DNA from: an uncultured virus (IMG/VR IMGVR_UViG_3300048029_000465)
Taxonomy: Duplodnaviria; Heunggongvirae; Uroviricota; Caudoviricetes; Demerecviridae
Strand: one strand, 5' to 3'
Length of the DNA: 64,000 bases
IMG/VR virus record: IMGVR_UViG_3300048029_000465
Position 1 is the first letter of the stretch, and the number at the start of each line of letters is the position of its first letter. The translations under genes were made by a program, and so were the position numbers. The notes below the pieces were generated by a model. It did not search any database. It had not been told where the DNA came from and saw only the letters and a program-made list of their open reading frames with translations. Below are positions 20,005 to 40,005 of the stretch, one piece after another.

Positions 20005-20014
20005 CCCCTTTTTT
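19991..20014. terminator. terminator hairpin between the convergent replication and tail arms
   Basis: AAGGGGCT-GAAT-AGCCCCTT-TTTT containing the + strand stop codon; strong for +, short U-tract for -. Confidence 0.8.
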
Positions 20015-20015
20015 A

Positions 20016-22445
20016 TTAGAAAGTATCCAAGTTTGTAACATAAGTTTGAGTGTATAAAGACTGTGCAGGAGTGCTTACCGTCAGTCCTGCATTCTGAGAA
20101 AGCCCACTCGTAGTGTAAAGAACCTTAGTACTATCTGTAGTATGTTGTGCTTCATTTGCAGTTGAACTACTAAAATCAGTTAAAGATATTGTGTAGTAAG
20201 GGTCTGTTCCTAGATAGTACTCATCATACGTGACAGTAGGATCTATAGAAGTAAGCAACACATCCTCCTTATGGGGCTGGTTGTAATAATTTGTGAGGCT
20301 ATTAGAGTTATCTGATAGTATAATAAGAGCTCCTTCACTATTAATTGCCGTAGCTATCGCACTTGTGTCTCCTCCTTGAGTAGCTCCTCCAGGCGCGGCA
20401 CTGACGTCATATCGGCCAATAAAGTTCTTTTCCATTTCTCGATAGTTATTCGGAAAAACTTTAATATATCCTGCACGCCATCGATTAGCAGTTGTATCTC
20501 TATTAGCAGTAACAGGAATATAAGCCTGATAAGAACTATTTACAGCTACTTTTCGTGCCGTACCAGTAAACTTTGGGTCTGGGTCGTTTTGTTGAGGAAT
20601 ATATGTATATATGGTAGCCCCATTTTTATTTCCACTACTTGGAGTAATATAATCTATTCGAAGAGTGCTACTCAAATTAGAGCCCCCAAGAGTAGTGTTT
20701 TCCAGAGAAACTACTGCTAGTTTAATGTTGGTGACCATAAAATACATCCCCACGGTGTACATGGAAGGCGACCCCGTAGTATTCGTGGGAGACGGCTGTC
20801 TTCTCCAAGTTATTGAGCCATTCGAAGAAGCAACTTTATACACTGCAGGAGCTGGCCTATAGGCTCCTCCAGACACTCGAACACTGTCGTTTCCCATAAG
20901 GTAAACATCACTATTATCTGCGCACGCGAGGCAGACGTGATTGCTTACATATTCATATGACGTTGAGCCAATTTCTTTTTGCCACTGAACAGTTCCAGAG
21001 GTATTAAATTTCATTAATAATAAATCGGTAGCCCCTGAGCCTCCAGATAAGTCGGTATGTGAAGAAGTACCTGCTACAAAAATAGAATTATTATCAGGAG
21101 AAACTACAACGTCATATAACTTAGTAGGATAACTATTACTGCCTGAGTCAATTCTTCGTTGCCAAGAGATTGCTCCAGCAGTTGTAAACTTAATTAAATT
21201 CGCATTTCTTCTGTAAGAGCTGCTAGTGTCTTCTGAGTGCCCTACTACATAAATATTATCATTACCATCTATAGCAATATTCGTAAACGTGTATCTTCCT
21301 GTACCTGAACCTACATTGCCATTGTCCACATACAGTTGCATCCACTGTACTGCACCGTTCTTATTAATTTTGTATATAGCTGCTCGGTGAAGTCCATATT
21401 GCTGCTGGCCTACTACATAAATATTATCATCGCTATCTAGAGCCATACTCCATGGCTTCACGCCGCTATTGGTCTGAGAAATAGTTAGTTGCCACGCACT
21501 TGAGAAAGCTAGCTCGAAAGACGCAGTTGCAGTAACATCGTTTGCACCGTCTGATGCAGTAAAGGTTACTCCAAATGTTCCTGCATTAGCACTGTCGGTA
21601 CTCGGAGTAATAGTAAATACATTTGCAGACTGAGTAATAGTCGCAGTAGACCCTAAAGTACCTGTAGTAACTGCATGGCTCCATGTAAGAGTTCCTCCTT
21701 CGGGGTCCGCAGAGCTAAGAGTAATAACAGTGGCTGTTCCATCGTCAGCTAAAGTATAAGAAGCATTTAAACCTGTTATTGCTGAAGGACTCTGGTTCGT
21801 TACAGTAAAGGATGCACTTGCAGTAACATCATTCACACCGTCTGAGACAGTAAAGGTTAGTTCAAATGTTCCACTAGAGTTGGTTGTTGGAGTAACCGTA
21901 AATACATTTGCAGACTGGCTGACTGTAGCATTTCCTAGGGCTCCAGAAGTAACTGCATAGCTCCATGTAAGAGTTCCTCCTTCTAGATCCGTAGAGCCTA
22001 AAGTAATAACCTCAGCGGGGTCGCCAGCATTTAAAGAATATGAGGCGCTTAACCCTGTTATTGCAGTAGGAGGATCATTTTGCAAAGCTACTCCTGCCCA
22101 GCCTGTACCGTCCCATGCGACAAGTCTTTGAAGATTTGTTAAGTATGCAAGATCTCCTTCAGTATTTCCTGTTGTGGGAAGAGTTCCGTAATTTAAGTAT
22201 ACTGGAACTCCCGCCGCTGCATCTACAAATTCAAGAGCTGTAGCACCTGAATTAACTGCTACGCTTTTACCTCCTGCATTTGTAAAATCTGAAGGAGTAT
22301 CTGTTAAATTCGTGAAAGTAGTAATAGGTCCGCCAGAAGTTGCCGTTGTACTCCATGAACTTAAAGTTGAACTATAATAATACGTAATTCCGGCTACAAC
22401 TACGGTATCTCCGTTTGAAGGATTGTTAGGAAAATTTACTGCCAT
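20016..22445 (-). CDS. putative receptor-binding adhesin RBP1 (N-module, stem, 2 Ig-like domains, beta-propeller head)
   Basis: NFPNNPSNGD N-module; two Ig/cadherin-like repeats (N..P.AITGL...FTVSDG); repeated (A/L)DS.DNIYVVG...K....G..QW blades. Confidence 0.7.
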   Translation of the reverse strand: MAVNFPNNPSNGDTVVVAGITYYYSSTLSSWSTTATSGGPITTFTNLTDTPSDFTNAGGKSVAVNSGATALEFVDAAAGVPVYLNYGTLPTTGNTEGDLAYLTNLQRLVAWDGTGWAGVALQNDPPTAITGLSASYSLNAGDPAEVITLGSTDLEGGTLTWSYAVTSGALGNATVSQSANVFTVTPTTNSSGTFELTFTVSDGVNDVTASASFTVTNQSPSAITGLNASYTLADDGTATVITLSSADPEGGTLTWSHAVTTGTLGSTATITQSANVFTITPSTDSANAGTFGVTFTASDGANDVTATASFELAFSSAWQLTISQTNSGVKPWSMALDSDDNIYVVGQQQYGLHRAAIYKINKNGAVQWMQLYVDNGNVGSGTGRYTFTNIAIDGNDNIYVVGHSEDTSSSYRRNANLIKFTTAGAISWQRRIDSGSNSYPTKLYDVVVSPDNNSIFVAGTSSHTDLSGGSGATDLLLMKFNTSGTVQWQKEIGSTSYEYVSNHVCLACADNSDVYLMGNDSVRVSGGAYRPAPAVYKVASSNGSITWRRQPSPTNTTGSPSMYTVGMYFMVTNIKLAVVSLENTTLGGSNLSSTLRIDYITPSSGNKNGATIYTYIPQQNDPDPKFTGTARKVAVNSSYQAYIPVTANRDTTANRWRAGYIKVFPNNYREMEKNFIGRYDVSAAPGGATQGGDTSAIATAINSEGALIILSDNSNSLTNYYNQPHKEDVLLTSIDPTVTYDEYYLGTDPYYTISLTDFSSSTANEAQHTTDSTKVLYTTSGLSQNAGLTVSTPAQSLYTQTYVTNLDTF

Positions 22446-22478
22446 TATTTATCTCCTTATGATAGATCTTCGTAGTCT
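22440..22478. repeat. 39-bp exact direct repeat, copy 1 (RBP2/RBP1 junction)
   Basis: tgccattatttatctccttatgatagatcttcgtagtct is identical at 24560-24598. Confidence 0.9.
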
Positions 22479-24565
22479 GAAGTCAGTGTTGCAGTACCCG
22501 TAGTGTTTGTAAGAGAGCTGCCCGCCCAGTTTGAGTCGTTTGTTACAGTATGAGTGTTAGTGTAGCCGTCGCCGTTTAGAGTTACTAGTGTATTTGTAAT
22601 GCCTGTAGGTGTTCCTGTATTCCACGCAATATCTGAGTTTACACCAAGAGTAGTATTAGTAGCAGGAACACTGCTCGGATTCATAGACATAATTCCAAAA
22701 CTTTGAGTAGAGGCCCCTGCTTCGTACAATTGAAAAAGACAGAGTAGCTTTCCAGAGCTTGTAACTAAAACATTTCTAGAGTAAAGACCATTACTATTAG
22801 TACTTGAAGGAAAACTTAACTTTCCTAACCAAGAACTGCTTGAAGGAGAAGTTTTGCTATATTTTACAATTGCTCCTTGATAGCCTACAGTACTTCCGGT
22901 ACTAGAATACCATAACTCTAGGCCTGCATATATAGAAGTAGAGTCTACTGCAGGTCTATGGGTTCCGTTTACATTAAAGTACGGTTCACTACTGGCGGTA
23001 GCATAGTGAATTCTCATTTGCAATTGGGATGCTGACCAGCTATTACCATCCCATTTAACACCATGCATTCCTAGCCTACCACCCGTAGTGCCTGATTCTG
23101 GCTTATATAGATTATAACTATATCCGCTCGGAGAGTCAAGACCTAAGCTCGAACTAGTGCCTTCAACACCATTATCATGAGATGCCCATTGATTTTGATA
23201 ACGAGCATGCCAAAAACTACCATCACTGAACTGGGTTGTAATTCCTATAGCATCTCTATTAGTACCATCACTATAATTGATACTGGGACAATATGAAGAA
23301 TTTTGTATATACCAATTACTATTCGAAGAGTGTTTAGGTAGAGTGTGCCCTGTGCCTCCCGTCCAATCATATACGCCTCCTGTCTGTCCCAATACTTTAC
23401 TCCATTGAATAGTTCCAGAAGTGTTTAATGCGTGTAGTGAATGTGCATAATAGCTCCCTGCAATTACTCCAGAATTGTGCCGGTACTTTAATACTATAGT
23501 ATTATCATCTGGACTGATTGCAATATGATTAAGTCCTAGAGTAAGGAAACCATAGCTTCCTGCTGAAGATACTAATTTCTTTGCCCATTGTACGGCTCCC
23601 GAAGTATTATATTTTATTACTATAGCCGCATTTGGATTTCCATAATATGCTCCTCCCACATATATATTGTCATTGCTATCTATTGCGATGGAGTATAGAT
23701 ACGTAGCTGTAGCATTGCTTTCTGTACTTTCAAAAAGTTTTGTCCATTTTAAAGTACCGTACTTATTTATTTTAGTTATACATCCTATACTGCCTGATCC
23801 AGTGTCTCGATTTCCTACAACATAAATATTATCATCGCTGTCTATTGCCATCTGAGAAGCAAGCAAACCCGTAGAGGATTCATAGTATTCGCCAAACCAC
23901 TCTTCTGAAAAACCAAGTGTAAATTCACTTACTTTACTCGATATATGAACTCCGTCAGAAGCTTTAAATCTTAAATTAAAACTTCCTGCATCCGACTGAG
24001 TAGTTGTTGGAGTAATCGTAAAAGTACCTCCACTATTCGTAATTGTAGCTTGCGATTGGTTCGATGGACTCGTATCATGACTATACGTAATATCAAACCC
24101 TTCTGGGTCTGTAGCGGCTACTGTTACAGTCGTAGCAGTTCCATCTGTCGCTAAAAAGTAACTACCGTTCGGGCTTGTACTAAACTCAGGAGTTTCATTT
24201 GCTCCAGAAGAAATACGATCCCATGCTGCACCGTTGTAAATGTAAAGTGCGTTTGTGTCTTCCGCGTAAGCAAGCTCCCCTTCGGAAGGGCTTCCGGGAA
24301 ATGCAGCAAAGTTTGTGTAGTTTGTAACTCCGCTACCACTACTTGCATCTACAAATTCAAGAGCTGTAGCACCTGAATTAACTGCTACGCTTTTACCTCC
24401 TGCATTTGTAAAGTCTGAAGGAGTATCGCTCAATCCTACAAAAGTGCTAGAGCCTCCGCCGGAAGCTCCAGTCCATGCTGTTTTTGTTGCGCTGTATGTA
24501 TATGTAACTCCTCCAAACTCGTGAGTATCTCCATCTGAAGGGTTACTTGGAAAATTCGTTGCCAT
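22457..24565 (-). CDS. putative receptor-binding adhesin RBP2 (N-module, stem, 1 Ig-like domain, beta-propeller head)
   Basis: Paralog of its neighbours; AIDSDDNIYVVG blades; ends DYEDLS. Confidence 0.7.
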   Translation of the reverse strand: MATNFPSNPSDGDTHEFGGVTYTYSATKTAWTGASGGGSSTFVGLSDTPSDFTNAGGKSVAVNSGATALEFVDASSGSGVTNYTNFAAFPGSPSEGELAYAEDTNALYIYNGAAWDRISSGANETPEFSTSPNGSYFLATDGTATTVTVAATDPEGFDITYSHDTSPSNQSQATITNSGGTFTITPTTTQSDAGSFNLRFKASDGVHISSKVSEFTLGFSEEWFGEYYESSTGLLASQMAIDSDDNIYVVGNRDTGSGSIGCITKINKYGTLKWTKLFESTESNATATYLYSIAIDSNDNIYVGGAYYGNPNAAIVIKYNTSGAVQWAKKLVSSAGSYGFLTLGLNHIAISPDDNTIVLKYRHNSGVIAGSYYAHSLHALNTSGTIQWSKVLGQTGGVYDWTGGTGHTLPKHSSNSNWYIQNSSYCPSINYSDGTNRDAIGITTQFSDGSFWHARYQNQWASHDNGVEGTSSSLGLDSPSGYSYNLYKPESGTTGGRLGMHGVKWDGNSWSASQLQMRIHYATASSEPYFNVNGTHRPAVDSTSIYAGLELWYSSTGSTVGYQGAIVKYSKTSPSSSSWLGKLSFPSSTNSNGLYSRNVLVTSSGKLLCLFQLYEAGASTQSFGIMSMNPSSVPATNTTLGVNSDIAWNTGTPTGITNTLVTLNGDGYTNTHTVTNDSNWAGSSLTNTTGTATLTSDYEDLS

Positions 24566-24598
24566 TATTTATCTCCTTATGATAGATCTTCGTAGTCT
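24560..24598. repeat. 39-bp exact direct repeat, copy 2 (RBP3/RBP2 junction)
   Basis: Identical to 22440-22478, 2120 bp apart. Confidence 0.9.
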
Positions 24599-26748
24599 CT
24601 AGTAACTGTAGGTCCTGCATCGGCTGTGTTTGTAAGGTTAGATAGTGTGTAACTAGGTCCTGCAACATTTGTGCGGGATCCAGCAAAATAATTAGAAGCT
24701 ACAGAAGTTGTCAAATTTAGAGTTCCAACGGTTTCGGGGGAGCCTGTTGAAAGAGTAATATTTGAGTTTACACCAAGAGTTGTAGAAGTAGGAAGAGCGC
24801 TACTAAGATTTACAGAAAGAATGCCCATATCTACACTTGTACCAGAAGAAGAAGCATCTCCCCCAATCCCTACCACAGCAATTGCTCGTCCTTCGCTTGT
24901 TTTTGCCATACTTGCGGCTTGTATTCCATATCCGGAAGAATTGCTTGGACACTTTAGGTATCCCTTACCAGTGCTTCCAGCGCCGGTGTCTCCATCTAGA
25001 AAGCCATACAAATACGTAGAATAACCTACTGTGCCAACTGTATTAGTGTCATATGCTGATATAGGAACATAATAATAAGTATCTTTAACTACCCCTATTC
25101 CGTTATTAAACGCATTTAAAGTTAGTCGGGTACTCGAACTGTTGGGGTATAGAACCCTTACACTATTAGTATTTGTTACCCCATTTGTTTCTCTTGAAAA
25201 AATGCTTACTCCGTAGTCGGTAGCTGCAAAAGAAGTACTACTACGAGGCGCATAAATTTGTATTACTTCGTTCGTATCGTCATCGTAGTAAAGCGGGCCT
25301 ACTAAGCTTCCCAAGTTTCCTATCGTTCCTTCATTTGCCCATACGAAGTTTGTGCCCGTACCATTAGAAGCTGACACCATTGCAATACCGGCTCCATAAA
25401 TTGCCCCAGAGCCAGTAGAAATTTGTACCTGCCCGCTCAAAGCAACAAATACATAGTTATTGTCAACAACCAAACTCGCACCACCGTATTCGACCGCAGA
25501 GGCCCCACCTATAGATCTTACCCATTGAGTAGTGCCATTTGAATCAACTGAAATAAGATTTACATAATAGGTAGCGTATGCACCCCCAAGCTGACCCCCC
25601 TGACTTCTGGTCGAAATATATATCCTGGTTCCGTCCGGTTTAATTCCAAAGCCGTTGTACGAAACATTTTCAGTTGAAGCACTTTGTAGATATTTTTTTG
25701 CAAATTGTACTGTTCCCGAAGTATTATACTTTACTAAAATGATTCTTTCACTAGTGTCTTCAAAGTATCCCAGCACATAAATATTATCGTTACTATCAAT
25801 TCGTATTCTTCTAAAGTCTGTGTCTCCTGCGTCTGCTTCCGTGGTTTCTAACGTTTTTGTCCATATAAGAGTTCCATGTTTATTCAGCTTAGAGATATAC
25901 CCAATTAGGTCATCACCGTTATTAGGTCTCATACCTCCTACCACATAAATGAAATCATTGCTATCAACTGCCACATCTTTTGGCAAAAAATCTTCTGGGC
26001 CATAGTATTGACCAAACCATTCATTTGTAAATCCAAGACTTACAAGAGAAGTTTTACTTGAAGTATGTACCCCATCAGAAGCTTTAAATCTTAAATTAAA
26101 GGTTCCTGCGTTAGCCTCAGTAGTTGTTGGAGTAATCGTAAAAGTACCTCCACTATTTGTAATGGTTGCTTGTGATTGATTTGAAGGACTTGTATCATGA
26201 CTGTACGTAATATCAAAACCTTCGGGATCTGTAGCAGCTACTGTTAGAGTCGTAGCTGTTCCATCCGTAGCAAGACTATAAGAAGCCGCAGGCTCTGTAG
26301 TAAATTCTGGAAGCATATTACTACCTGTAGAGAAGCGATCCCATTCTGTACCATCCCACACATACATTGCGTTTGTATCTTCGGCCCATGCCATATCTGC
26401 TTCTGTATTGCCTGTAGTAGGAAAAGCCGCAAGGTTTGCGTAAGAAGTTACACTACTTCCGCCGCTGCTACTACTTCCGCTTCCTGCAGAAGATACAATT
26501 TCTATCCACTGACTTGAATCAGTGTCCTGATAGTATACAAAAAGACTGTTATCTGCAGTATCAAACCACAAATCTCCGTCGCTTGGGGAAGAAGGTGCAC
26601 TATCTGATGTACTCACCGAAGCGCCGCCTCCGCCGGAACCTGCCGAGGAAGCTGTCCATACTCCTCGCGTTGAGTTGTATGTATATGTAACTCCTCCAAA
26701 AGTATGTGTGTCTCCGTTTGAAGGACTATTGGGAAAATTTGTTGCCAT
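24577..26748 (-). CDS. putative receptor-binding adhesin RBP3 (N-module, D-module, stem, Ig-like domain, beta-propeller head)
   Basis: Carries SDSAPSSPSDGDLWFDT...SSQWIEI, shared with the 1037-aa fibre; propeller blades; ends DYEDLS. Confidence 0.7.
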   Translation of the reverse strand: MATNFPNSPSNGDTHTFGGVTYTYNSTRGVWTASSAGSGGGGASVSTSDSAPSSPSDGDLWFDTADNSLFVYYQDTDSSQWIEIVSSAGSGSSSSGGSSVTSYANLAAFPTTGNTEADMAWAEDTNAMYVWDGTEWDRFSTGSNMLPEFTTEPAASYSLATDGTATTLTVAATDPEGFDITYSHDTSPSNQSQATITNSGGTFTITPTTTEANAGTFNLRFKASDGVHTSSKTSLVSLGFTNEWFGQYYGPEDFLPKDVAVDSNDFIYVVGGMRPNNGDDLIGYISKLNKHGTLIWTKTLETTEADAGDTDFRRIRIDSNDNIYVLGYFEDTSERIILVKYNTSGTVQFAKKYLQSASTENVSYNGFGIKPDGTRIYISTRSQGGQLGGAYATYYVNLISVDSNGTTQWVRSIGGASAVEYGGASLVVDNNYVFVALSGQVQISTGSGAIYGAGIAMVSASNGTGTNFVWANEGTIGNLGSLVGPLYYDDDTNEVIQIYAPRSSTSFAATDYGVSIFSRETNGVTNTNSVRVLYPNSSSTRLTLNAFNNGIGVVKDTYYYVPISAYDTNTVGTVGYSTYLYGFLDGDTGAGSTGKGYLKCPSNSSGYGIQAASMAKTSEGRAIAVVGIGGDASSSGTSVDMGILSVNLSSALPTSTTLGVNSNITLSTGSPETVGTLNLTTSVASNYFAGSRTNVAGPSYTLSNLTNTADAGPTVTRDYEDLS

Positions 26749-26759
26749 TGTTTGCCTCC

Positions 26760-29021
26760 TTATAAGGTGTCTTTATGATACTGAATACTGGAAGATATAT
26801 CTGTCGTAGTCATAGTTATATTTGTTGTATTAAAAGTTGCGGTATTAAATGACGGGCTATCAACGTACATGCTTCTAGTTGCAGAAGTTGAGTTCAGTGA
26901 ATAACTTGACGTACTAGGGTTGTCAAATTTTAAGTTATTATTTACTCCTAACGAACTTGTACCGTTATAAGAAGTGCTTGGATCTAGTGACATTATAATT
27001 ATATCCCTTTTTCCTGAAGTATGGGTACCAAAGTCGGTTGTAGTTAGTAATATAAGTTTACCTGTGCTGGTGATTGCTGATCCACCACTATATAAACCCG
27101 CTGTAGCCGAGGTTGTGGGAAGAATGAAGTTTTTATTGTAAGTATACGCTTGGGTACTTTCTGTTAGATCAATATATCCAGTTACCCGTTGAACGTTACT
27201 ACCGTTATGATACCTGTAAGTTATAGGTATATAGGTTTTATTGCCACTAGAGACAATTTGTCCTCCTGCATCTTCATCGACATATAGCTCATCCCATATG
27301 GAGGAGGGGCTGCTTGCAGAATAAACGCTTCTTGCAGTTCCTCCTGAAACAGCTCCACTTGTCGTTAAATACTCCCAAGTAAGCCCCCATTTCTCGTATA
27401 CATCATTATTCCACCGCTCGTCTTCTTTAAATGCCACGCCTATAGTACCACTACTATTTATCCATATACCCCTCGGCTCCATATCATTTTTCATTATACC
27501 TCTTCTCCAGGAAAGAGTTCCATTGGAGTTAATTGCGTATATTGCTCCTTGAAAAGTACTTACAGAGTCTTTTGCTACAAAATAAACTTTATTGTTGTCT
27601 GCCACGGACGCCGGAGCCATGCGATCATTCGAGTTGGCCATGACTTTTGACCATTGTAAAGACCCAGAAGAATTCCATTTTGTCATATAGATACTATAGC
27701 TTGATCCTAAGGTACCAGTTCCCGTATAATTAACAACTTTTCCTCCAAGATATATGTCGGAACCATTTGGAGAAACCGCTAAATTATATCCATAAAAAAC
27801 TCTTGCAGTACCTCCGGAGCCCGTTACTTTTCGTGCCCACTGTACTGTTCCAGAAGTATTCAGTTTCATAATAAGAGGATAGTTTTCGGTATCGAGTAAA
27901 GTAGCTGCTATATAGATATTATCATTGCTATCTATTACCATTTCCTGCAGCTGAAAAGGAATTGAGGTACTAAAAGTATAGTCTTTAGACCACTGATGAA
28001 CCCCTTCGCTATTAAATTTATGAATTACGGGTCGATAGGACGGAGAGCTAGTATGAAATGTGGATCCTACATAAATATTATCATTACTATCTACTACTAC
28101 AGAGTGATCAAATGCATAGGGTCCACTACCTCCACTGTTCCACCCTGCCTGTACCAACCATTCATCTGCTAAAAAAACTAATGAAAAAGAGGCAGTTGCA
28201 GTAACATCGTTTGCACCATCTGATGCAGTAAAGGTTACTCCAAATGTTCCTGCATCCGCCGAGTTTGTACTCGGAGTAACAGTAAATACATTTGCAGACT
28301 GAGTAATAGTCGCAGTAGATCCTAAAGTACCTGTAGTAACTGCATGACTCCATGTAAGAGTTCCTCCTTCGGGGTCCGCAGAGCTAAGAGTAATAACAGT
28401 GGCTGTTCCATCGTTAGCTAAAGTATAAGAAGAATTTAATCCTGTTATTGCTGAAGGACTTTGATTTGCTATAGTAAAAGAGGCGCTTGCAGTAGTGCTC
28501 GTTTCTCCATCTGATGCAGTAAAAGTTAGCTCGAATGTGCCCGAAGAGTTTGCTGTTGGAGTAACCGTAAATACATTTGCAGATTGACTAACTGTAGCAT
28601 TTCCTAGGGCTCCTGAAGTAACCGCATAACTCCATGTAAGCGACGCGCCTTCTAAGTCAGTGGAGCCTAAAGTAATAACCTCAGCGGGGTCACCCGCATT
28701 TAAAGAATATGAAGCACTTAAGCCTGTTATTGCAGTAGGAGGTTCATTTACTAAAGCTGTTCCTGCCCATCCTGTGCCGTTCCAAGCAACAAGCCTCTGA
28801 AGGCTCGTTAAATACGCAAGATCTCCTTCTGTATTTCCAGAAGTAGGAAGAGCAGCAAAATTTAAGTATACTGGAACTCCTTCGGATGCGTCTACAAATT
28901 CAAGAGCTGTAGCTCCTGAATTAACTGCCACAGTTTTACCTTCAGCACTCGTAAAGTCTGCAGGAGTATCTGTTAAATTTGTGAAGGTACTGCTACCTTT
29001 TAAATTTGAATAATTTGCCAT
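26760..29021 (-). CDS. putative receptor-binding adhesin RBP4 (stem, 2 Ig-like domains, beta-propeller head)
   Basis: Stem nearly identical to RBP1, different N-terminus (MANYSNLKG); VDSNDNIYVG blades. Confidence 0.7.
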   Translation of the reverse strand: MANYSNLKGSSTFTNLTDTPADFTSAEGKTVAVNSGATALEFVDASEGVPVYLNFAALPTSGNTEGDLAYLTSLQRLVAWNGTGWAGTALVNEPPTAITGLSASYSLNAGDPAEVITLGSTDLEGASLTWSYAVTSGALGNATVSQSANVFTVTPTANSSGTFELTFTASDGETSTTASASFTIANQSPSAITGLNSSYTLANDGTATVITLSSADPEGGTLTWSHAVTTGTLGSTATITQSANVFTVTPSTNSADAGTFGVTFTASDGANDVTATASFSLVFLADEWLVQAGWNSGGSGPYAFDHSVVVDSNDNIYVGSTFHTSSPSYRPVIHKFNSEGVHQWSKDYTFSTSIPFQLQEMVIDSNDNIYIAATLLDTENYPLIMKLNTSGTVQWARKVTGSGGTARVFYGYNLAVSPNGSDIYLGGKVVNYTGTGTLGSSYSIYMTKWNSSGSLQWSKVMANSNDRMAPASVADNNKVYFVAKDSVSTFQGAIYAINSNGTLSWRRGIMKNDMEPRGIWINSSGTIGVAFKEDERWNNDVYEKWGLTWEYLTTSGAVSGGTARSVYSASSPSSIWDELYVDEDAGGQIVSSGNKTYIPITYRYHNGSNVQRVTGYIDLTESTQAYTYNKNFILPTTSATAGLYSGGSAITSTGKLILLTTTDFGTHTSGKRDIIIMSLDPSTSYNGTSSLGVNNNLKFDNPSTSSYSLNSTSATRSMYVDSPSFNTATFNTTNITMTTTDISSSIQYHKDTL

Positions 29022-29022
29022 A

Positions 29023-32000
29023 TTATTTCTCCGTCAACAGCCAGCCTTGGGCCACGTTGTAATATACTAAACCAAATGCTGCTCTGTCTACGTCCACTGT
29101 CAAGTCGCTTGCGTCTCCGTTAATTTTGTGTCCATTTCTTGCAACTGTAATATTGTTTGTAGCAGCATTTCCTGTACCGTCTATAATTTTAACTTCGTCG
29201 CCCAAAGTTGCCGAAGTAGGTAGTGTAACTGTTACGGCTGTAGAAGTATCTACAATGAGCCCTTCTCCCGCAACTGCTGTATATGCTGCTGTTTTTTCTT
29301 TCCAATCTGTGCCGCTTGCTGCAGAAGAGCCGCCTGAAGACCCTACAACTTCAATCCATTGACTTGAGTCGGAGTCTTCATAGTATATAAAGAGTCCACT
29401 ATTTGTAGTATCAAACCATAAGTCTCCGTCATTTGGAGAAGTTGGGGCAGTATCGGAAGTAGCTACTGAAGCACCCCCGCTTCCTCCGCTTAGAAGTTCA
29501 ATCCATTGACTTGAGTCTGTATCTTCATAGTATACAAATAAATCATTATTCGTAGTGTCTAACCACAAGTCTCCATTGTTTGGGGAAGTTGGGGCAGTGT
29601 CAGATGTGGATACCGAAGTACCTGAAGATACCGCAGTACTTGAAGGATTTGTTTGAACCCATTGAGAAGAGTCCCCATCATTATAGTAAACATGCAACTT
29701 AAGATTTGTGCTGTTAAACCATAGGTCCCCTGCAGTCGGGGACGAAGGAGCCGCGTCAGAGGTTGTTACAGAGGCTCCACCACCACTCGTAGCAATTGTT
29801 CCAGGTATCCACTCACTAGCAGAATTATCCCAGACAAGCGCTTGACCGTCTGTAGGAGCAGTAGTCGTTGTGTCCACATCAGACAAATTATCTATACTTA
29901 TATTTACTGACTGAGCTACCCAATCATAGTCTGTGCCATTCCAACTTAATACTTCCCCACTAGATGCACTGCTTGTATTTAAGTGTGTATCAACGCTTGA
30001 ATCTGTGTAAGTACCGGAAGCTCCAGCTACTGCCGCTGTTACAAACTCAGTTGTTGCTAGCTGAGTAGTATTTGTGCCGCTTGTTGCTGTTGGAGCAGTC
30101 GGAGTACCTGTAAGTGCGGGAGAGGCTAAGGAAGCTTTTGCGGACAAAGCTGAATTATTCGCAAGCTCTACCCAGTTTCCGCCATGTGCAAAATATGCTG
30201 CACCAGTACCATGAACGTGTGCAAACATACCGTGATAAGTTGTTGCACTTGGAAGGTCTCCAGTACTTGCAAACATATTTGCAAAGTATACTTTTCCTGT
30301 TGTGATAAAGTCATTACTGCCTATATCTGCATCTGCCCCTGTAGTAAGAGCATTAGTGATACCATACCCTGCTACAGTGGTGGGCTTTCCTGTCAGCGCA
30401 GTAAATGTTCCGTTAAACGCATCTGTAATACCATAGCCCGAGAGAGTAGTAGGAGTACTACTTAACGAACTAAAAGCCCCGTCAAAAGCATCTGTAATCC
30501 CGTAACCCGCTAGAGTAGTTGGCTTACCTGTTAAAGCACTAAATGACCCACTAAATGCATCCGTAATCCCGTAGCCTGCTATAGTAGTTGGACGACTGCT
30601 AAGAGAGCTAAAAGCTCCATCAAAAGCATCAGTAATCCCATACCCTGCTAGAGTAGTTGGCTTACCTGTTAAAGCACTAAATGACCCACTAAATGCATCC
30701 GTAATCCCGTAGCCAGATATAGTTGTTGGACGACTGCTAAGAGAGCTAAAAGCTCCATCAAAAGCATCAGTAATCCCGTACCCTGCTACAGTAGTCGGCG
30801 TACCACTTAAAGAACTAAAAGCACCATCAAAAGCATCAGTAATACCGTACCCTGCTATAGTGGTGGGTTTACTAGTTAAACTTCCAAAAGAGACTGACGT
30901 TAAGTAATTACTTAAGTCAGGAGGTGTAAAAGTAAATACTCCTGAAGAGTTGTTGTAGGATAAAGATCCTCCGCCAGATGCAGAGACGTTTGAAGCACTT
31001 AAATTACTTAATCCTATGTTGTTTGATACGCTGGATTGCACGAAAGCAGTAGTAGCAATTTGAGTAGTATTTGTACCACTACTTGCTGTAGGCGCTGTAG
31101 GAGTGCCGGTAAGAGCAGGGCTTGCTAGTGGTGCTTTTGTAGCTATGCTATTTGTAACAGTGCTTGAAAAATTAGCATCGTCTCCTAGAGCGGCCGCTAG
31201 TTCATTAAGAGTATCTAACGCAGCAGGGGCACTGTCTACTACATCTGCTACCGCAGTTTGCACGAAAGCAGTAGTAGCAATTTGAGTAGTATTTGTACCT
31301 GCAGTAGCAGTAGGAGCAGTAGGAGTTCCTGTAAGCCCTGGACTCGCTAGAGGGGCTGCATCAGTAATCCCGTAGCCAGATATAGTTGTAGGCTTACCAC
31401 TTAGAGAACTAAACGCACCGTCAAAAGCATCAGTAATCCCGTAGCCAGATATAGTTGTAGGCTTACCACTTAGAGAACTAAACGCACCATCAAAAGCATC
31501 AGTAATCCCATACCCAGATATAGTTGTAGGCTTACCACTTAGAGAACTAAACGCACCGTCAAAAGCATCTGTAATACCGTAGCCAGATATAGTTGTAGGC
31601 TTACCAGTTAGAGAACTAAAAGCACCATCAAAAGCATCAGTAATCCCGTAGCCAGATATAGTTGTTGGCTTACCAGTTAAAGAACTAAAAGCCCCGTCAA
31701 AAGCATCAGTAATACCGTACCCAGATATAGTTGTTGGCTTACCTGTTAAAGAACTAAAAGCCCCGTCAAAAGCATCAGTAATACCGTACCCAGATATAGT
31801 ATTTGGTTTTCCTGTTAACGCAGAAAAAGTGCCATCAAAGGCATCTGTAATACCGTAGCCAGATATAGTTGTAGGCTTACCACTTAGAGAGCTAAACGCG
31901 CCATCAAAGGCATCAGTGATACCGTATCCTGCTATAGTAGTAGGAGTAGTAGTTAAATCTGAAAATCCTAAAGCATAGATTAAATAAGGTAAAGAGTTCC

Positions 32001-32136
32001 ACGCAGTGTTTCCGTCACCAATTTTTACTTTATCTGTATCTGTTTCGTATCCTAGCTCACCCTCTGTTAAAATAGTATTTGCTGTAGTCCAGTTAGAAGA
32101 AGTATCCCGTCTTAGTTGTATTCGTGCTACTGCCAT
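29023..32136 (-). CDS. side tail fibre / branching hub with Mtd_N-like N-terminus and 23-aa repeats
   Basis: RIQLRRDT..NW...N..L.EGE.G.ETDT...KIGDG...W..LPY (Mtd_N-like); PTTISGYGITDA repeats; AP.ALDTLNELAAALGDD; three GDLW modules; C-terminal VTLP.SA..GD.V.IID domain. Confidence 0.8.
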   Translation of the reverse strand: MAVARIQLRRDTSSNWTTANTILTEGELGYETDTDKVKIGDGNTAWNSLPYLIYALGFSDLTTTPTTIAGYGITDAFDGAFSSLSGKPTTISGYGITDAFDGTFSALTGKPNTISGYGITDAFDGAFSSLTGKPTTISGYGITDAFDGAFSSLTGKPTTISGYGITDAFDGAFSSLTGKPTTISGYGITDAFDGAFSSLSGKPTTISGYGITDAFDGAFSSLSGKPTTISGYGITDAFDGAFSSLSGKPTTISGYGITDAAPLASPGLTGTPTAPTATAGTNTTQIATTAFVQTAVADVVDSAPAALDTLNELAAALGDDANFSSTVTNSIATKAPLASPALTGTPTAPTASSGTNTTQIATTAFVQSSVSNNIGLSNLSASNVSASGGGSLSYNNSSGVFTFTPPDLSNYLTSVSFGSLTSKPTTIAGYGITDAFDGAFSSLSGTPTTVAGYGITDAFDGAFSSLSSRPTTISGYGITDAFSGSFSALTGKPTTLAGYGITDAFDGAFSSLSSRPTTIAGYGITDAFSGSFSALTGKPTTLAGYGITDAFDGAFSSLSSTPTTLSGYGITDAFNGTFTALTGKPTTVAGYGITNALTTGADADIGSNDFITTGKVYFANMFASTGDLPSATTYHGMFAHVHGTGAAYFAHGGNWVELANNSALSAKASLASPALTGTPTAPTATSGTNTTQLATTEFVTAAVAGASGTYTDSSVDTHLNTSSASSGEVLSWNGTDYDWVAQSVNISIDNLSDVDTTTTAPTDGQALVWDNSASEWIPGTIATSGGGASVTTSDAAPSSPTAGDLWFNSTNLKLHVYYNDGDSSQWVQTNPSSTAVSSGTSVSTSDTAPTSPNNGDLWLDTTNNDLFVYYEDTDSSQWIELLSGGSGGASVATSDTAPTSPNDGDLWFDTTNSGLFIYYEDSDSSQWIEVVGSSGGSSAASGTDWKEKTAAYTAVAGEGLIVDTSTAVTVTLPTSATLGDEVKIIDGTGNAATNNITVARNGHKINGDASDLTVDVDRAAFGLVYYNVAQGWLLTEK
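30352..30885 (-). repeat. 69-bp coding tandem repeat, 8 copies
   Basis: Eight GYGIT units in frame, partly arranged as a 138-bp dimer. Confidence 0.9.
31358..31960 (-). repeat. 69-bp coding tandem repeat, 9 copies
   Basis: The tatagt anchor recurs at 31381, 31450, 31519 ... 31933; unit TTISGYGITDAFDGAFSSL(S/T)GKP. Confidence 0.92.
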
Positions 32137-34484: not shown

Positions 34485-34496
34485 AATTATTTTTAA

Positions 34497-36614
34497 TTAC
34501 ACGCTAGCGTCTTGTAGTTCAATAGACCAAGTAATTTGTAAAGTATCTGTTACTGCTTTGTTGATTGCAGAAAAAGTTGTTCTACAAAGCATTGTTTGAG
34601 TAACAGGGCCTTGAGTAAAGCCGTGAGCATTTGCACTTACTTTTTCTCCACCTGTTGTTAAAACTGCATTTTTAAGGAAGTTTTCACTATTAGCTACTCG
34701 CTCTTCTTCTTGCAAAGGAATTTTACCGGCAGCTAAACCATCAACTCCATTAGTGGTGGTTGAATTATTGATATAGTCCGCCTGTTGCGATTCCGTTCCA
34801 GCTACTCTTTGATCAGGATCAGTTCTATCCCCAATATCAAAAATACCTACATCAGGTTTGTGCTTATTAAAAATACCTGCCTCGCAGATAGGATATACAC
34901 CATCTATAGGAGATCTATTGTTTCCAGAAATATCTTTAGCTTCTGTATCTGTAAGATTGTGTAGTCTAGGATCCCTGTCTGTTTCTAGGCGAGGGTTATT
35001 TTCTTTGAAAGTAGCTACATAGACTATTCTTGTACCGCTTTTCTTGCCTCCTATTTGAGCGTTCGGGGTATAAGGGCCAGTACTATATGAAAGTAAGTTA
35101 GGAATTGCATTGGTATCTTGAGTACCTCCATTTCCATCTGGAAGTACGTATTTATTAGGGTCTACTGTAGAGTAGACTTTTAAACCTCCAACTGCTCCAT
35201 AGTTATTTTCTGAAGTAGGGTAGCCTTCTGCTCGTTTTCCAGAGTCTTCTGAAATAGAGCTGCCTACACTTGACCCTTGAAAAATTCCATCTACTGCGGT
35301 TCCAAACTGTACAAACTCTTTTGTAGAAGTTGTTGCGGGTTTATCTTCAGGCTCTCCTTTAAAGGGAAACTTACCTGTTGTTCCTACTAAAGAAGAAAAT
35401 CCTGCCTGTGTTTCTCCATGACCGTTCCCACCAGCAAACTTTTTTAATCGTTGACTTAAAGTTTCTACAAAACCATTTCCGTCATCAAAAGGCACTAGGA
35501 GAGATAAATCAGTAGTTACAAGATCTCTTTCATAAAATAAACCAATCTGGCCTCGTGAAACTCCTAGTAGTTTGACATCATCATCATCAACAGGGCCGCC
35601 CGACTCAATAAAAGGGCCCAAACCTCCAATACTAGAACCTGTGGAAGAAATAGTAGCGGTACCTCCAAACTCAGAAAAAGTATTTCCAACTCCGTTACCG
35701 AAAGTCGGGTGTGCATCTCCTGCAAAATTTGAGTCTAAGTCAAGGTGGGGTCGGCTATTTAGTGGGAAAACAGACTGGTACGCTGAGTCTATTTGACCGG
35801 AAGCATATACTTCTTTTTTATTTCTGATTCTACCTACATACTCTACTCGACTAAAGACTGTTCGGTCTCCTACGTTATCGTCGTGAGCAGGAGAGGAAGA
35901 GAACTTAGGAGGTAAATCATTCGTATCTATTTGAGTTGTAAGAGTAATTTTGGCCTCTCCTCGAGCTGCAACAATCTCAATAGATTCAATTTTATAACCA
36001 TTTACTCCATCAGTAAGGTTCGTATAAGAGCTAGGAGCTACAAGACTTGTGCCTGTTGCTCCATCATCAAACGCTGTAAATGCAATAATCTCATTAGGCT
36101 GTAAAAGTCCAATAGTATCAATAGAGTTAAAGGTACTACCCGTAGAAATTGTAATAACGCTTTTACCGCCAACTACAGCATGTAAATCGCCGTCAGAACC
36201 AATAGTAGTAGATCGAGTAAGTACAATATGCTCGACAGGCGCATAGTCAGTTTTGAGAGTAGTATCTTTCATCAACTGCACTCGAGACCCTCGCTCATCT
36301 TGAAGCATTCGATCGTACTTTTGAGGTATTGCAGCTGTTCTATCTGCTGCTGGATAAACCGATGAAGTCAAATTGTACGTATTTGGGTTACTTCTAGCAG
36401 AACCTCCAATACCTACAGCCATGTGACTCATCATACGTGGCATTTCGTGCGCGCCTTTTTTGTCTTGCCTATCATCAATCATACGACCAATAAGGTGCGC
36501 TAACCCATGATCCGTTACTTTGTTTCTAATAGTTTTGTGCTGTTTTACCTTGCCATCTTTATCTCGAAGAACAAGGTTTACAACACCTTTAAGTTGACAA
36601 TCGTCTATATACAT
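34497..36614 (-). CDS. putative tail/fibre anchoring structural protein with large insertions
   Basis: LKG.V.LVL.D.DG.VK....N.V...G; MSHMAVG; YVATF; EAGIFN; TMLCRT.F..INK...DTLQITW.I core motifs. Confidence 0.65.
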   Translation of the reverse strand: MYIDDCQLKGVVNLVLRDKDGKVKQHKTIRNKVTDHGLAHLIGRMIDDRQDKKGAHEMPRMMSHMAVGIGGSARSNPNTYNLTSSVYPAADRTAAIPQKYDRMLQDERGSRVQLMKDTTLKTDYAPVEHIVLTRSTTIGSDGDLHAVVGGKSVITISTGSTFNSIDTIGLLQPNEIIAFTAFDDGATGTSLVAPSSYTNLTDGVNGYKIESIEIVAARGEAKITLTTQIDTNDLPPKFSSSPAHDDNVGDRTVFSRVEYVGRIRNKKEVYASGQIDSAYQSVFPLNSRPHLDLDSNFAGDAHPTFGNGVGNTFSEFGGTATISSTGSSIGGLGPFIESGGPVDDDDVKLLGVSRGQIGLFYERDLVTTDLSLLVPFDDGNGFVETLSQRLKKFAGGNGHGETQAGFSSLVGTTGKFPFKGEPEDKPATTSTKEFVQFGTAVDGIFQGSSVGSSISEDSGKRAEGYPTSENNYGAVGGLKVYSTVDPNKYVLPDGNGGTQDTNAIPNLLSYSTGPYTPNAQIGGKKSGTRIVYVATFKENNPRLETDRDPRLHNLTDTEAKDISGNNRSPIDGVYPICEAGIFNKHKPDVGIFDIGDRTDPDQRVAGTESQQADYINNSTTTNGVDGLAAGKIPLQEEERVANSENFLKNAVLTTGGEKVSANAHGFTQGPVTQTMLCRTTFSAINKAVTDTLQITWSIELQDASV

Positions 36615-36626
36615 TTAATTTTCTCC

Positions 36627-39401
36627 TTAAAAGTGGCTTGCTGTTGTAGCCCCACCTACATAGGGCTCTAAGAAATATGGCCCGTTGACATAACCTTTGC
36701 TAGTGTAAAAAACACTTCCACTATCAATAGTAGGAATGCTTTCTTCAATAGTACCTAGGTTGCTTTGTTTATTAACTAACTCTTCTGTGTTTATATATAA
36801 GTTAGATATTTCTTTTTTTGGTTGTCCTCTAAAAAAGTTAATATATGCTTCAATATTACTAATGGTTAGATTAGGAATTTTTCCTGCATGTATAACTCTT
36901 TCTTTAGATAAACCACGACTTTTTACTTTTTTACGTAATACTTTGGGAACATCTTTTTCAGTAAAAGATATGTTAAATAAAGAATCAAAGGGTCTTCCGT
37001 AGCCAAACCCTTCAATTTTAGAATTTAAAGTTACTTTAGCAAGGTTACTAAAGTGTTTAGGCTTTAACGTACTAAATTTTACTAAAATATCAGACTTTAT
37101 AGGCGTTAAGAATATATTTTTTCTATGCGCCTCTTTGCTTTTTAGTATTTCTGCATTATCTTTTAGTTTTACAGAAATACTACTAGACTGTGTACTTGCA
37201 GTATCTTTATAGTATTCTACTTGACCTTTAAGAGTATCAAGAGGTAAAGAACGCAAATTTAGCTTAGTGCCTTTTAAATCTATTCCATAGTCTTTAAAAA
37301 TAGACCGTGCATCAATTTTTATAATCTCATCTTTAGCAGATATACTCGGTTTAACTTTAAACTTACTTTTCGTAATTACTTTATTTAGTATTACTCTGCT
37401 TTTAGGGGTAAGGGTGCTTTCTATACCTTTTACAATTGTAAAAATAGTTGGCAATCTTATCTTTCTTTTAAACTTTAGTATCTCTAGTCCGGAAGATACT
37501 AAGGACTCCATACCTGTTCCGGGCTTAAAAGATAAAAAAGAATCATCAGCTTTTGGTCTTTCTGTTAAATTACTTACTTTTGTAGGAAGTATGAGTTCAA
37601 TAGATTTTGTTTTACTACTAAATGGCTTTATTAGTTTATAAGTTAAAATATCTGAAGGATGAGGTACAGTGTCTAAAAAGGGACGGGGCTTATTTTTAAA
37701 AGTAAGCTTACTGTCATCTAGCTTCAAATTTTCAGTATTGATTTTACTTTTGGGACTTAAAACAAATTTATTTAGTTTTACATAATTTTGTAATTGTTTA
37801 ACAGGAAATACATTTGTACTTTCTGAATGTGTTATTCTTTCTTCAGTGCCGGTGCGCTTTATAAAAGTTGTAAGGTCTTTTGCACTTAAAGAAACAAAGT
37901 CTCTGTTAGTTAAGAGTTTTGCTCTTAAAAAATCTAAAGTTCTTGTAGCTACTTTTGTCTTACTCTCTTTTCTAGTAAGAATAAAATTGGAGAGAGCGTC
38001 TTCTAAAGTAAACTTACTTGTAAAAAGCTTAGTTACTTTTGCTTTCGTGTCGCTCTCTAAGTCTACAAAATTTGTAATAGTAGTGCTTTTAGGGCTTAAA
38101 ACTTGTTCTAAGCTTTGAACTTTAGTTTTTGTAAAGTTTTTTATCGGAAAGACATCTTCAAGTATAGAAGTGTTTTTTACTCTTGATAAAAACTGTTTTC
38201 TAGTAAGCCGTTCTGTTCCGACATCTACAGCACTTAGTAAATCTACTTTACTAAAACTTCTAGATGGCTTAACGAACAACAATGAAGATACTTTATCAAA
38301 AACTTGTTTGTTAGGCAAAATATCTGTAACTTCATTACTAAAGGCAAAAACGTCTCGAAAAACCCTCTTTCTACTTCTAGTAATGTCAAATTCTTGAACA
38401 GTATTGATTGTATTGTTTAAAAAATTATGTTTTGCACTTAGTACCCGTTGTATGGTATTTAAGTATAATTCTTGCGTTTTTCTACTGGTCTTTTTAATTT
38501 CTAATATATCAAAGTATGTTTTGATAAGATGCCTTGATACACGAAGAGTTTGCTTGATTAGTACTTCGTCTGAAGAAGTAGTAATTTTATTGTTTAATAT
38601 ACTACTTCGTGCATTTAATACAGTTTGTAATGCTTTTGCATGTAATAAATACTTTTCTCTACTTGACTTTTTAAACGCAACAATTTCAAAACCAATCTTT
38701 GCAGAGTCTTGCGGCACTCTAGTACTTCGTTCAGTTTTAAAAGTATTAAATACCTTTACTCTTTCTAAGCTAATATTACTTTTTGCAGGCAAAGACTTAC
38801 TAATATATAAGACTCTGTCATTTTTTGCTGCTGTCTTTTCTTGAATAAAGAAAGTTTTATCTCGTAACTTTACTTTACTCTTAAATCTATTTGCTCTTTT
38901 TCTTTCTACTAAAACCTCTAAGGATGCCATTCCAATAACATCTTTAAAATCTCTTTTAGTATTCGTAATTCTAGAGAATATATCTATAAAGGAAACAGAA
39001 CTTTTAAATGTATCTGCTTTTGCTTGTATAGTTTGTTGTCTACTTTTTACTTTACTCTTTTTGCTTAAAGATATAGCATAAGGGTGTAGACTATCTGTTA
39101 AAGTTACTTGATTGGATAGTTTTCTCGACTTTTTAAACTTTAACGGATCTTCTTGTAAGAAAATTCTTGTAAAGTCAAAGTCTCTTTTAACTCGTACTTT
39201 ATAATCTAATGAAACATCAAATAAAGAAGGAGTGTTTGCAAAAAAAGACCCTACAGGAGCAGGGCTACTTAATCCATTAAATAATGGATTAGTTTCTTCT
39301 GTTAGTGCTATTTTAGTAAACTTTGGAGCAGTATCTAGTTTTTTAATGACTTTGGGGTCACTTAACAAATTTAATACTGTAACATTTACTTTAATAGACA
39401 T
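36627..39401 (-). CDS. Lys/Arg-rich repetitive protein in the side-fibre operon
   Basis: 924-aa uninterrupted ORF in AT-rich DNA, loose ~19-aa periodicity, C-terminal YFLEPYVG motif. Confidence 0.7.
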   Translation of the reverse strand: MSIKVNVTVLNLLSDPKVIKKLDTAPKFTKIALTEETNPLFNGLSSPAPVGSFFANTPSLFDVSLDYKVRVKRDFDFTRIFLQEDPLKFKKSRKLSNQVTLTDSLHPYAISLSKKSKVKSRQQTIQAKADTFKSSVSFIDIFSRITNTKRDFKDVIGMASLEVLVERKRANRFKSKVKLRDKTFFIQEKTAAKNDRVLYISKSLPAKSNISLERVKVFNTFKTERSTRVPQDSAKIGFEIVAFKKSSREKYLLHAKALQTVLNARSSILNNKITTSSDEVLIKQTLRVSRHLIKTYFDILEIKKTSRKTQELYLNTIQRVLSAKHNFLNNTINTVQEFDITRSRKRVFRDVFAFSNEVTDILPNKQVFDKVSSLLFVKPSRSFSKVDLLSAVDVGTERLTRKQFLSRVKNTSILEDVFPIKNFTKTKVQSLEQVLSPKSTTITNFVDLESDTKAKVTKLFTSKFTLEDALSNFILTRKESKTKVATRTLDFLRAKLLTNRDFVSLSAKDLTTFIKRTGTEERITHSESTNVFPVKQLQNYVKLNKFVLSPKSKINTENLKLDDSKLTFKNKPRPFLDTVPHPSDILTYKLIKPFSSKTKSIELILPTKVSNLTERPKADDSFLSFKPGTGMESLVSSGLEILKFKRKIRLPTIFTIVKGIESTLTPKSRVILNKVITKSKFKVKPSISAKDEIIKIDARSIFKDYGIDLKGTKLNLRSLPLDTLKGQVEYYKDTASTQSSSISVKLKDNAEILKSKEAHRKNIFLTPIKSDILVKFSTLKPKHFSNLAKVTLNSKIEGFGYGRPFDSLFNISFTEKDVPKVLRKKVKSRGLSKERVIHAGKIPNLTISNIEAYINFFRGQPKKEISNLYINTEELVNKQSNLGTIEESIPTIDSGSVFYTSKGYVNGPYFLEPYVGGATTASHF

Positions 39402-39584
39402 TTAAATTTTTAATATTATACTTACCGTACTGGCCTCTAATAAATTTGCGGTATTTGCAGTTGATTTAAGTAAACGAGGAGTTAAAGCAGTAGCAGTACC
39501 TAAAGTAGGTAAATTATATTCTAAAGTTGGTATAGGATTATTTACTAAAGAAGGTTTTCTTTTGTATATAAAAGGCTGCTTCAC
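39402..39584 (-). CDS. small hypothetical protein
   Basis: 60 aa, GTG start with AGAGGA upstream; exactly fills the gap between two genes. Confidence 0.5.
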   Translation of the reverse strand: MKQPFIYKRKPSLVNNPIPTLEYNLPTLGTATALTPRLLKSTANTANLLEASTVSIILKI

Positions 39585-39917
39585 TTAAAAGTCCTCTCTC
39601 ACTTTTAAGTCAATTAGTTCAAAAACACTAATAACACTACCGTCGGCTAGAGTAAATTCAATTTCTGCTTCGTAAAATCCTGCGGTTGTTGCTTCATTTG
39701 TTAAAAAAGAAGATAAAGGAAACACTAGTAGTCCTGTCCCTAAAACAGAATCATCAGGAGATAAGTCAATAGTTACAAGAGTAGTTGAAGTGCCTTTTTT
39801 TCTAATTTTTAAAACGGTATTACTGGTGCCTACAAACGCAGAACCGGTGTCTGATCTATTTACTGAAGCTTTTAATTGTGGCCCAGTGTCTCCTTTTACT
39901 AGTTGAATAATGTCCAT
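39585..39917 (-). CDS. BppU-N / T5 p132-like collar protein for side-fibre attachment
   Basis: I.LV.GDT.P.L...G.YEAEIEFT..DG...SV....LKVREDF Ig-like pattern; first gene of the fibre operon. Confidence 0.7.
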   Translation of the reverse strand: MDIIQLVKGDTGPQLKASVNRSDTGSAFVGTSNTVLKIRKKGTSTTLVTIDLSPDDSVLGTGLLVFPLSSFLTNEATTAGFYEAEIEFTLADGSVISVFELIDLKVREDF

Positions 39918-39965: not shown

Positions 39966-40005
39966 ATTATATCAACCCCTAGATAAAAAGTCAAGATTTA
40001 TTTTT
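39966..40005 (-). promoter_or_regulatory. sigma70-type promoter of the side-fibre operon
   Basis: On - strand AAAAATAAATC-TTGACT(39994-39989)-17 bp-TATAAT(39971-39966). Confidence 0.85.

Follow-up and report, generated by a model that had tools for sequence, protein, structure and literature searches.

The adhesin operon

Ten tightly packed, co-oriented genes occupy positions 20016 to 39917, on the minus strand, of the record IMGVR_UViG_3300048029_000465 (IMG/VR; Caudoviricetes, Demerecviridae), a stretch of 64,000 nucleotides (nt) from an uncultured virus that is referred to here, at its full length, as the window. Their products include a fibre-like protein of 1037 amino acids (aa) and four adhesins, RBP1 to RBP4. 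Marine host range is set by phage adhesins. Comparison with related loci favours, by a modest degree, the explanation that these genes are the operon for the distal-tail adhesins of a marine siphophage that is uncultured, in which a fibre would carry the mounted adhesins; the element for which the case is strongest is a putative joint between the terminal domain (TD) of the 1037-aa protein and a short leader at the start of RBP4.

A preliminary description of the locus had given the order, lengths and coordinates of the ten genes, all of which hold, and had assigned them a single promoter. A near-consensus sigma-70-type match (39994-39966, minus strand; 11/12 consensus matches) does sit directly ahead of the ten genes, after a 440-aa gene, in the only sizeable gap of the operon region, and is accompanied by a hairpin. 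Promoter-like matches across the window are no commoner than in shuffles, and a second 11/12 match inside the RBP2 coding region (23111-23139, minus strand) may for this reason be due to chance. The features of the operon are as follows.

39966..39994 (-): sigma-70-type promoter, TTGACT-17-TATAAT with TG before the -10 element
39585..39917 (-): first gene, 110 aa; lead to a BppU_N-like fold only
39402..39584 (-): 60-aa open reading frame (ORF), GTG start
36627..39401 (-): 924-aa Lys-rich protein, low-GC stretch
34497..36614 (-): 705-aa structural protein, conserved; serves as marker for the phage family
32136..34484 (-): 782-aa fibre-like protein; N module (Gln variant) 34377-34484
29023..32136 (-): 1037-aa central fibre; Mtd_N, repeat arrays, connector end
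29647-29772, 29491-29616 and 29344-29469 (-): three D modules of the 1037-aa fibre, with Gly/Ser-rich linkers between them
29026..29304 (-): TD of the 1037-aa fibre, an XD1-type beta-sandwich
26760..29021 (-): RBP4; 9-residue leader (28995-29021), X module, I module (28755-28871), two immunoglobulin-like (Ig-like) domains, SBBP propeller head
24577..26748 (-): RBP3; N (26641-26748), D (26494-26619), I (26329-26445), Ig-like domain, SBBP head
22457..24565 (-): RBP2; N (24458-24565), X module, I (24209-24322), Ig-like domain, SBBP head
20016..22445 (-): RBP1; N (22338-22445), X module, I (22086-22202), two Ig-like domains, SBBP head

The 1037-aa protein begins with an Mtd_N domain (PF18454, aa 6-44; 51.2 bits against a cut-off of 26.3 bits), contains two arrays of 69-nt (23-aa) repeats of the GYGITDAF type and is matched by many tail-fibre PHROGs. 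Its end, as had been described, consists of three D modules followed by TD. The N modules that open RBP1, RBP2, RBP3 and the 782-aa protein were likewise confirmed, as were the MANYS-type leader of RBP4 and the D module that RBP3 carries of its own. The C-terminal part of the 782-aa protein is similar to tail-fibre segments, and the stop codon of its gene overlaps the start of the 1037-aa gene.

The beta-propeller heads proposed for the adhesins are supported in all four by matches to the Pfam family SBBP (PF06739) above the gathering cut-off of 20.5 bits (RBP1, 37.1; RBP2, 33.6; RBP3, 27.3; RBP4, 28.9 bits). The adhesins share one layout, in which an N module or leader is followed by an X or D module, an I module, one or two Ig-like domains (Pfam Big_9 and Cadherin_5) and the head. 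They fall into two paralogous pairs, RBP4 with RBP1 (48% identity) and RBP3 with RBP2 (39%), and RBP4 is an RBP1-type protein in which the leader stands in place of the N module. One set of Ig-like domains is common to RBP1 and RBP4 and another to RBP2 and RBP3, and this sharing across paralogues shows a shuffling of modules among the adhesins. The two Ig-like domains of RBP1 are encoded by a 282-nt tandem duplication at 21523-22071. The idea of a multi-adhesin operon put together from short, exchangeable end modules is supported.

The terminal domain and the leader that follows it

Related loci, 30 in number, were retrieved from viral sequences with the 705-aa protein as the family marker. 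Among distinct pairs of adjacent genes in this phage family, a TD at the end of the upstream gene coincides with a leader at the start of the downstream gene in 10, TD occurs alone in none, the leader alone in one and neither in 192. The leader gene is therefore next in 10/10 distinct cases of a TD-ending gene, and the single leader that lacks an upstream TD is the second leader gene of one lineage. The leader gene starts 0-2 nt past the TD stop codon or, where an upstream start was chosen in calling the ORF, 21 nt ahead of that stop, and the codons of the leader vary synonymously.

When the sample was widened to 464 pattern matches on viral contigs, 337 of these proved to encode a relative of TD, and the best 80 loci reduce to 59 distinct cases. 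TD stands at the protein end in 59/59 of these and the next ORF starts within -21 to +58 nt in 58/59. A strict leader opens that ORF in 14/58 and a looser Tyr-type leader in 25/58, while other classes of leader start recur with particular variants of the TD tail. The same arrangement of a C-terminal TD and then the next gene was seen in each Pelagibacter phage examined, three in all, of which one is a siphophage, one a podophage and one a myophage. Cultured Pelagibacter phages that carry these parts include Kolga (gp17/gp18) and HTVC027P (gp69/gp70).

TD has also been transferred, along with its leader gene, onto other carrier proteins. Carriers comprise the Mtd_N fibres, a fibre of 1563-1699 aa without the Mtd_N start, a 595-aa protein that begins with an N module (locus L015) and minimal adaptors. 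The smallest of these last (L065) fits an N module, a D-like stretch and TD into 186 aa, of which only N and TD score by profile; further adaptors of the N-D-TD form have 518 and 611 aa. A leader gene comes next after the N-module carrier of L015 and after every minimal adaptor. Some fibres (L003, L005, L014, L015 and L018) end in a conserved LVFTFN tail instead of TD, and there a 12-nt gap is always followed by a gene of 416-422 aa that starts MYA[KH]L; this combination is a second, alternative end cassette.

TD is homologous in sequence to the XD1 domain of the CBA120 tailspike TSP4 and of T4 gp10. The N-terminal part of TSP4 (7RFV, 7REJ, 7RFO) is matched by phmmer at E 1e-8, and a TD profile aligns to TSP4 residues 99-175 at E 1e-9 and to T4 gp10 residues 56-138 at E 0.035. 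In the part of the TSP4 account available to us (PMC8825819), residues 80-178 form XD1, a sandwich also present in T4 gp9 and gp10. The preliminary description had held that the modules of this operon differ from those of G7C and CBA120, and for TD this can no longer be maintained. When the C-terminal end of the 1037-aa protein and RBP3 were searched by sequence against the Protein Data Bank (PDB), alignments reached the XD1 part only; the 1037-aa protein ends at TD, with no sequence beyond it. TD itself is not the docking domain known from TSP4.

Between lineages whose 705-aa proteins share 41-50% identity, the identity of TD is 68-77%. A scan of 1.84 billion representative proteins with TD (E <= 0.001) returned 11,988, cultured pelagiphages and cyanophages among their sources. 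Among the best 150 of these matches the best stretch lies no more than five residues from the C-terminus in 109 (counted by hand); most of the remaining 41 contain several copies, as many as 24 stretches in one protein.

Because TD in relatives is always C-terminal, is followed at once by another fibre gene and is paired with the leader in 10/10 family cases, the putative TD-leader joint is well supported by comparison. It is likely that TD and leader form a fibre-to-fibre joint in which the leader of RBP4 would bind the TD of the protein encoded just upstream. The preliminary description had matched three D modules and one terminal domain on the fibre with three N-module adhesins and one leader adhesin. 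The single pair stands, in that TD and the MANYS-type leader behave as cognates; the rule of three D for three N fails in relatives.

N, D and I modules

A loose form of the module motif has 11 matches in the six frames of the window, all within the operon. They include an internal module of the same family, named I, in each of the adhesins, which had been missed in the preliminary description. With profiles made from the window together with 20 related loci, N, D and I fall into three classes. D and I align with an hhalign probability of 92.7%, and N and D with 48-57% (E 1e-4) in full register. In an AlphaFold2 (AF2) model of RBP3 aa 1-90, made from 18 sequences (predicted local distance difference test, pLDDT, 73.9; predicted template modelling score, pTM, 0.60), N and D are built alike: a short strand leads into a Pro-rich loop, after which come three strands. 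N had been taken as unrelated to D; the full register of the hhalign alignment and the shared four-strand pattern argue that it is a D variant and belongs to the D/I family as its N-terminal member. Third-codon identity at the conserved module residues is only 0.32-0.67, which excludes recent gene conversion as the source of module conservation; with synonymous sites so diverged, selection on the modules acts on the protein.

Profiles of D and N found nothing credible among PDB sequences. A Pfam match of D modules to Cyclophil_like2 was treated as spurious. D modules also match PHROG 3304, annotated as 'L-shaped tail fiber protein assembly'; on this ground a connection with the collar of T5 was considered, and was dropped because the cultured phages matched by D modules are nearly all cyanophages, in which the name is an automatic label. 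Of 92 cultured phage records with D modules, 83 are from Synechococcus phages and 4 from Prochlorococcus phages, and from this distribution the module kit is widespread in marine phages. In Synechococcus phage MA01, N modules begin many small fibre-like proteins, and a 943-aa protein that bears D is followed by two N-module genes with overlapping stop and start codons. The modules of the operon belong to a marine kit common to cyanomyophages and pelagiphages; no description of the N or D motif was found in a limited collection of the cyanophage and pelagiphage literature.

Does N dock into D?

The existence of minimal N-D-TD adaptors in relatives makes it probable that the N module is an attachment plug. 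D modules are the best candidate sockets for N. The narrower proposal that N docks into D is put forward tentatively, as less likely than not, and a chained form of it, with D supplied in cis or in trans, is possible. Counts bearing on it were taken as the number of strong profile hits per record, with the homologous I modules left out.

N:D, window: 4:4
N:D, G001: 5:6
N:D, G002: 7:7
N:D, G003: 6 (+1 weak):7
N:D, G004: 7:7
N:D, G006 (complete, 101 kb): 8:8
N:D, G007: 4:6
N:D, G008: 4 (+1 fragment):8
N:D, G009: 3 (+1):7
N:D, G010: 5 (+1):6
N:D, G011: 4:4
N:D, Synechococcus phage S-B68: 3:10
N:D, Synechococcus phage S-N03: 9:14
N:D, Synechococcus phage MA01: 10:14
N:D, Pelagibacter phages Kolga and Mosig: 0:0

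N does not exceed D in any of the 14 genomes that hold modules, and the two are equal in 5-7 of them. Under a resampling null, equality has a P of 0.12-0.22 per genome and of about 0.004 for three lineages together. Read by gene order, a free D lies upstream of every N gene in 6/6 operons, an outcome with a chance of 0.14-1.0 in each. One pair in G006, included in its 8:8, lies outside the adhesin operon, directly after the probable tape measure gene (L038, 7323-11637, minus strand); here a 1258-aa protein that opens with a D module comes first, and a 175-aa protein that opens with an N module follows.

A number of points weigh against docking of N into D. It had been expected that the D count of the fibre would track the number of N genes across relatives and it does not, since their fibres have 1-2 D modules and 5-7 N genes downstream. 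D far exceeds N in G008, G009, G007 and the cyanophages. The N/D balance hinges on the omission of I, on thresholds set post hoc and on how degenerate N-like starts are counted, and of the two profiles that of D may be the more sensitive. G001-G004 are related to one another, several contigs are incomplete and the counts for the window cover 64 kb of this phage's genome. As regards fold, an AF2 model of the C-terminal end of the 1037-aa protein (8-sequence alignment; mean pLDDT 55.8) gives the D modules 70-81; TD is poorly modelled and the model was kept out of the fold search. With the N-D model, Foldseek found no match at E <= 0.001, and the best VIA-align score (Z 3.7) was not significant.

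Proposed mechanism and alternative explanations

If the operon does encode a fibre with mounted adhesins, the 1037-aa protein would be the long fibre, with its Mtd_N start, a repeat shaft and, at the far end, a connector of three D modules and TD. On this the four paralogous adhesins, with their Ig-like domains and beta-propeller heads, would be mounted by short N-terminal pieces. The 8-9-residue leader of RBP4 would bind the TD of the upstream-encoded protein to give a fibre-to-fibre joint, and the 35-aa N module would serve RBP1-3 and the 782-aa protein as their attachment plug. Each D would form its own small trimer on linkers, in the manner of XD2 and XD3 of T4 gp10 and CBA120 TSP4, and a branched tree would result. 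The Gly/Ser linkers of the D modules and their position beside TD would fit, by analogy, the picture drawn from gp10 and TSP4 of trimers that swing out as platforms.

Two other explanations bear on separate parts of this scheme. TD might be a glycan-binding receptor tip and not a socket, the next gene being merely the next fibre gene and its conserved start a matter of translational coupling. In the available part of PMC8825819 the docking domains of TSP4 are XD2 and XD3, XD1 is called a spacer of unclear function for which no docking role is shown, and the XD1 fold recurs in the glycan-binding modules of CpaA and StcE. A C-terminal position, which TD always has, is also the usual place of receptor-binding domains. 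TD-like stretches form tandem arrays, 13-24 to a protein, in proteins of 3200-4200 aa (P0005, P0011 and P0036), so that the XD1-type fold has a second role as a repeat in giant proteins. The stop and start codons overlap, GGAG lies within the T-E-R codons at the end of TD, and conservation of these last codons may partly serve the ribosome-binding site of the next gene. Also at odds with a simple TD-leader joint are the 5/58 wider cases in which an N module, and not a leader, begins the gene after TD, and a fibre of G006 (L037/L029) whose single TD is followed by two leader genes, of 423 and 433 aa, from which it follows that the joint is not strictly one-to-one. Against a receptor tip, TD is among the most conserved parts of otherwise variable fibres, unlike the tips that determine host range, and the leader keeps its protein sequence through synonymous changes, ahead of unrelated downstream sequence. 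Four kinds of TD carrier moreover have a leader gene after them, and one of these, a 186-aa adaptor, would have no purpose otherwise; leader classes also co-vary with TD tail variants. We therefore regard a receptor tip as improbable.

The D modules, for their part, might support no tree at all. N, D and I could be structural or trimerisation beads of the proximal shaft, with the D modules of the fibre as shaft elements only, and the N-module proteins could attach separately to a baseplate or tail-tip protein (the 705-aa protein, the 924-aa protein or the hub). This would suit the membership of N, D and I in one family and the N-D-D-I tandem arrays found within single proteins, as well as the 2-3-copy D arrays that recur along giant fibres of 2976-3213 aa, where, as in the cyanophages, D far outnumbers N. 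The subtypes of N are alike in proteins with and without a D of their own, and the best fold matches, although not significant, are to the trimerisation domains of collagen XV and XVIII (Z 3.5-3.7). It would not account for totals in which N so often equals and never exceeds D, nor for a window fibre that has three D modules exactly where its adhesins lack D; these D modules, moreover, lie on Gly/Ser linkers by TD, at the connector end and not in the shaft. Minimal N-D-TD adaptors exist, and the TD-leader pairing would be left unexplained. Attachment without a tree thus seems rather unlikely, and a fibre with mounted adhesins is preferred.

A more far-reaching form of the mounted-adhesin explanation, which we consider doubtful, is that N/D and TD/leader together make up a plug-and-socket code, general among marine phages and hierarchical, which T5-like siphophages, pelagiphages and T4-like cyanophages would have in common. 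No N plug would then do without a D socket, in cis or in trans, 186-aa N-D-TD connectors would allow the tree to be rebuilt, and gene shuffling would yield fibre trees with up to eight different heads.

Other genes of the operon and phage context

The label 'collar' given to the 110-aa protein was not confirmed, as it has no Pfam or PHROG match; a protein language model gave the lead to BppU_N and nothing more. The gene of the 924-aa Lys-rich protein lies where the GC content of the window is lowest (0.30-0.34, compared with about 0.41), and no family match was found for its product. Its counterpart in relatives occupies the same place ahead of the 705-aa gene and ranges in length from 678 to 1772 aa. 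For the 705-aa protein no family was assigned and a protein atlas gave no usable lead.

The window contains replication genes of T5 type (family A polymerase, primase, DnaB-like helicase, NAD ligase, flap nuclease, ribonucleotide reductase (RNR) and PhoH). Its tail module includes a Baseplate_Tube_p140 match, a probable tape measure of 1650 aa, a hub-sized protein of 2960 aa and a fibre of 1726 aa whose end is an S74 chaperone. The T5-like tail that had been proposed is supported by the Baseplate_Tube_p140 match and the T5-type replication genes. The replication/RNR block, on the plus strand, converges on the adhesin operon with 11 nt between the stop codons (20004-20016), and no terminator-like hairpin was found at this point. 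When the operon DNA, the 705-aa protein and RBP3 were used as queries (tblastn, megablast), none had a match in 50,697 cultured phage records. For the L033/L035 lineage a search for fuller relatives returned the same contig and one fragment only.

A fibre-ending XD1-type domain followed by a partner gene is a very common candidate joint, found on 337 viral contigs, and N, D and I form a second mini-domain kit of marine phages. If the proposed roles are true, both would offer natural connector parts for the re-targeting of phage fibres in laboratory strains.

Comparison with known systems

The L-shaped fibres of phages DT57C and DT571/2 (LtfA/LtfB, with the collar protein LtfC) resemble the present system, as far as the available portions of the accounts go (PMC10713586, PMC4728585), in a T5-type tail, a fibre made of several proteins and the use of N-terminal strands for attachment. 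Homology to the N-terminus of pb1/LtfA or to the LtfC collar was not found with the queries and phage records named above, nor in the Pfam and PHROG searches with the 110-aa protein.

Parallels are also found in the tailspikes TSP1-4 of CBA120 (Ackermannviridae) and in T4 gp10. As described in the available part of PMC8825819, these systems have receptor-binding protein genes side by side and small trimeric beta domains that serve as platforms on Gly-rich linkers, and the TD of the present operon is a sequence homologue of their XD1. Here, however, XD1 is the last domain of a long fibre in a siphophage with a T5-like tail, no XD2/XD3 jellyroll was found by sequence and the partner contributes a leader of 8-9 residues, not a head domain.

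In KP32, K11 and KP34, which are podophages of Klebsiella, a branching domain on RBP1 is accompanied by a conserved docking peptide on RBP2, and an adhesin gene directly downstream of the anchor begins with this short conserved peptide, which is thought to dock on a gp10-like domain (PMC6872550, PMC13352976, both available in part). The same arrangement, of a downstream gene with a short conserved N-terminal peptide, holds for all ten distinct TD genes of the family studied here. The present system differs in that its socket would be XD1-like and C-terminal, that there are up to eight adhesins and that a second and larger type of putative plug, the N module, is present. The operon is probably a modular multi-adhesin system of the branched kind.

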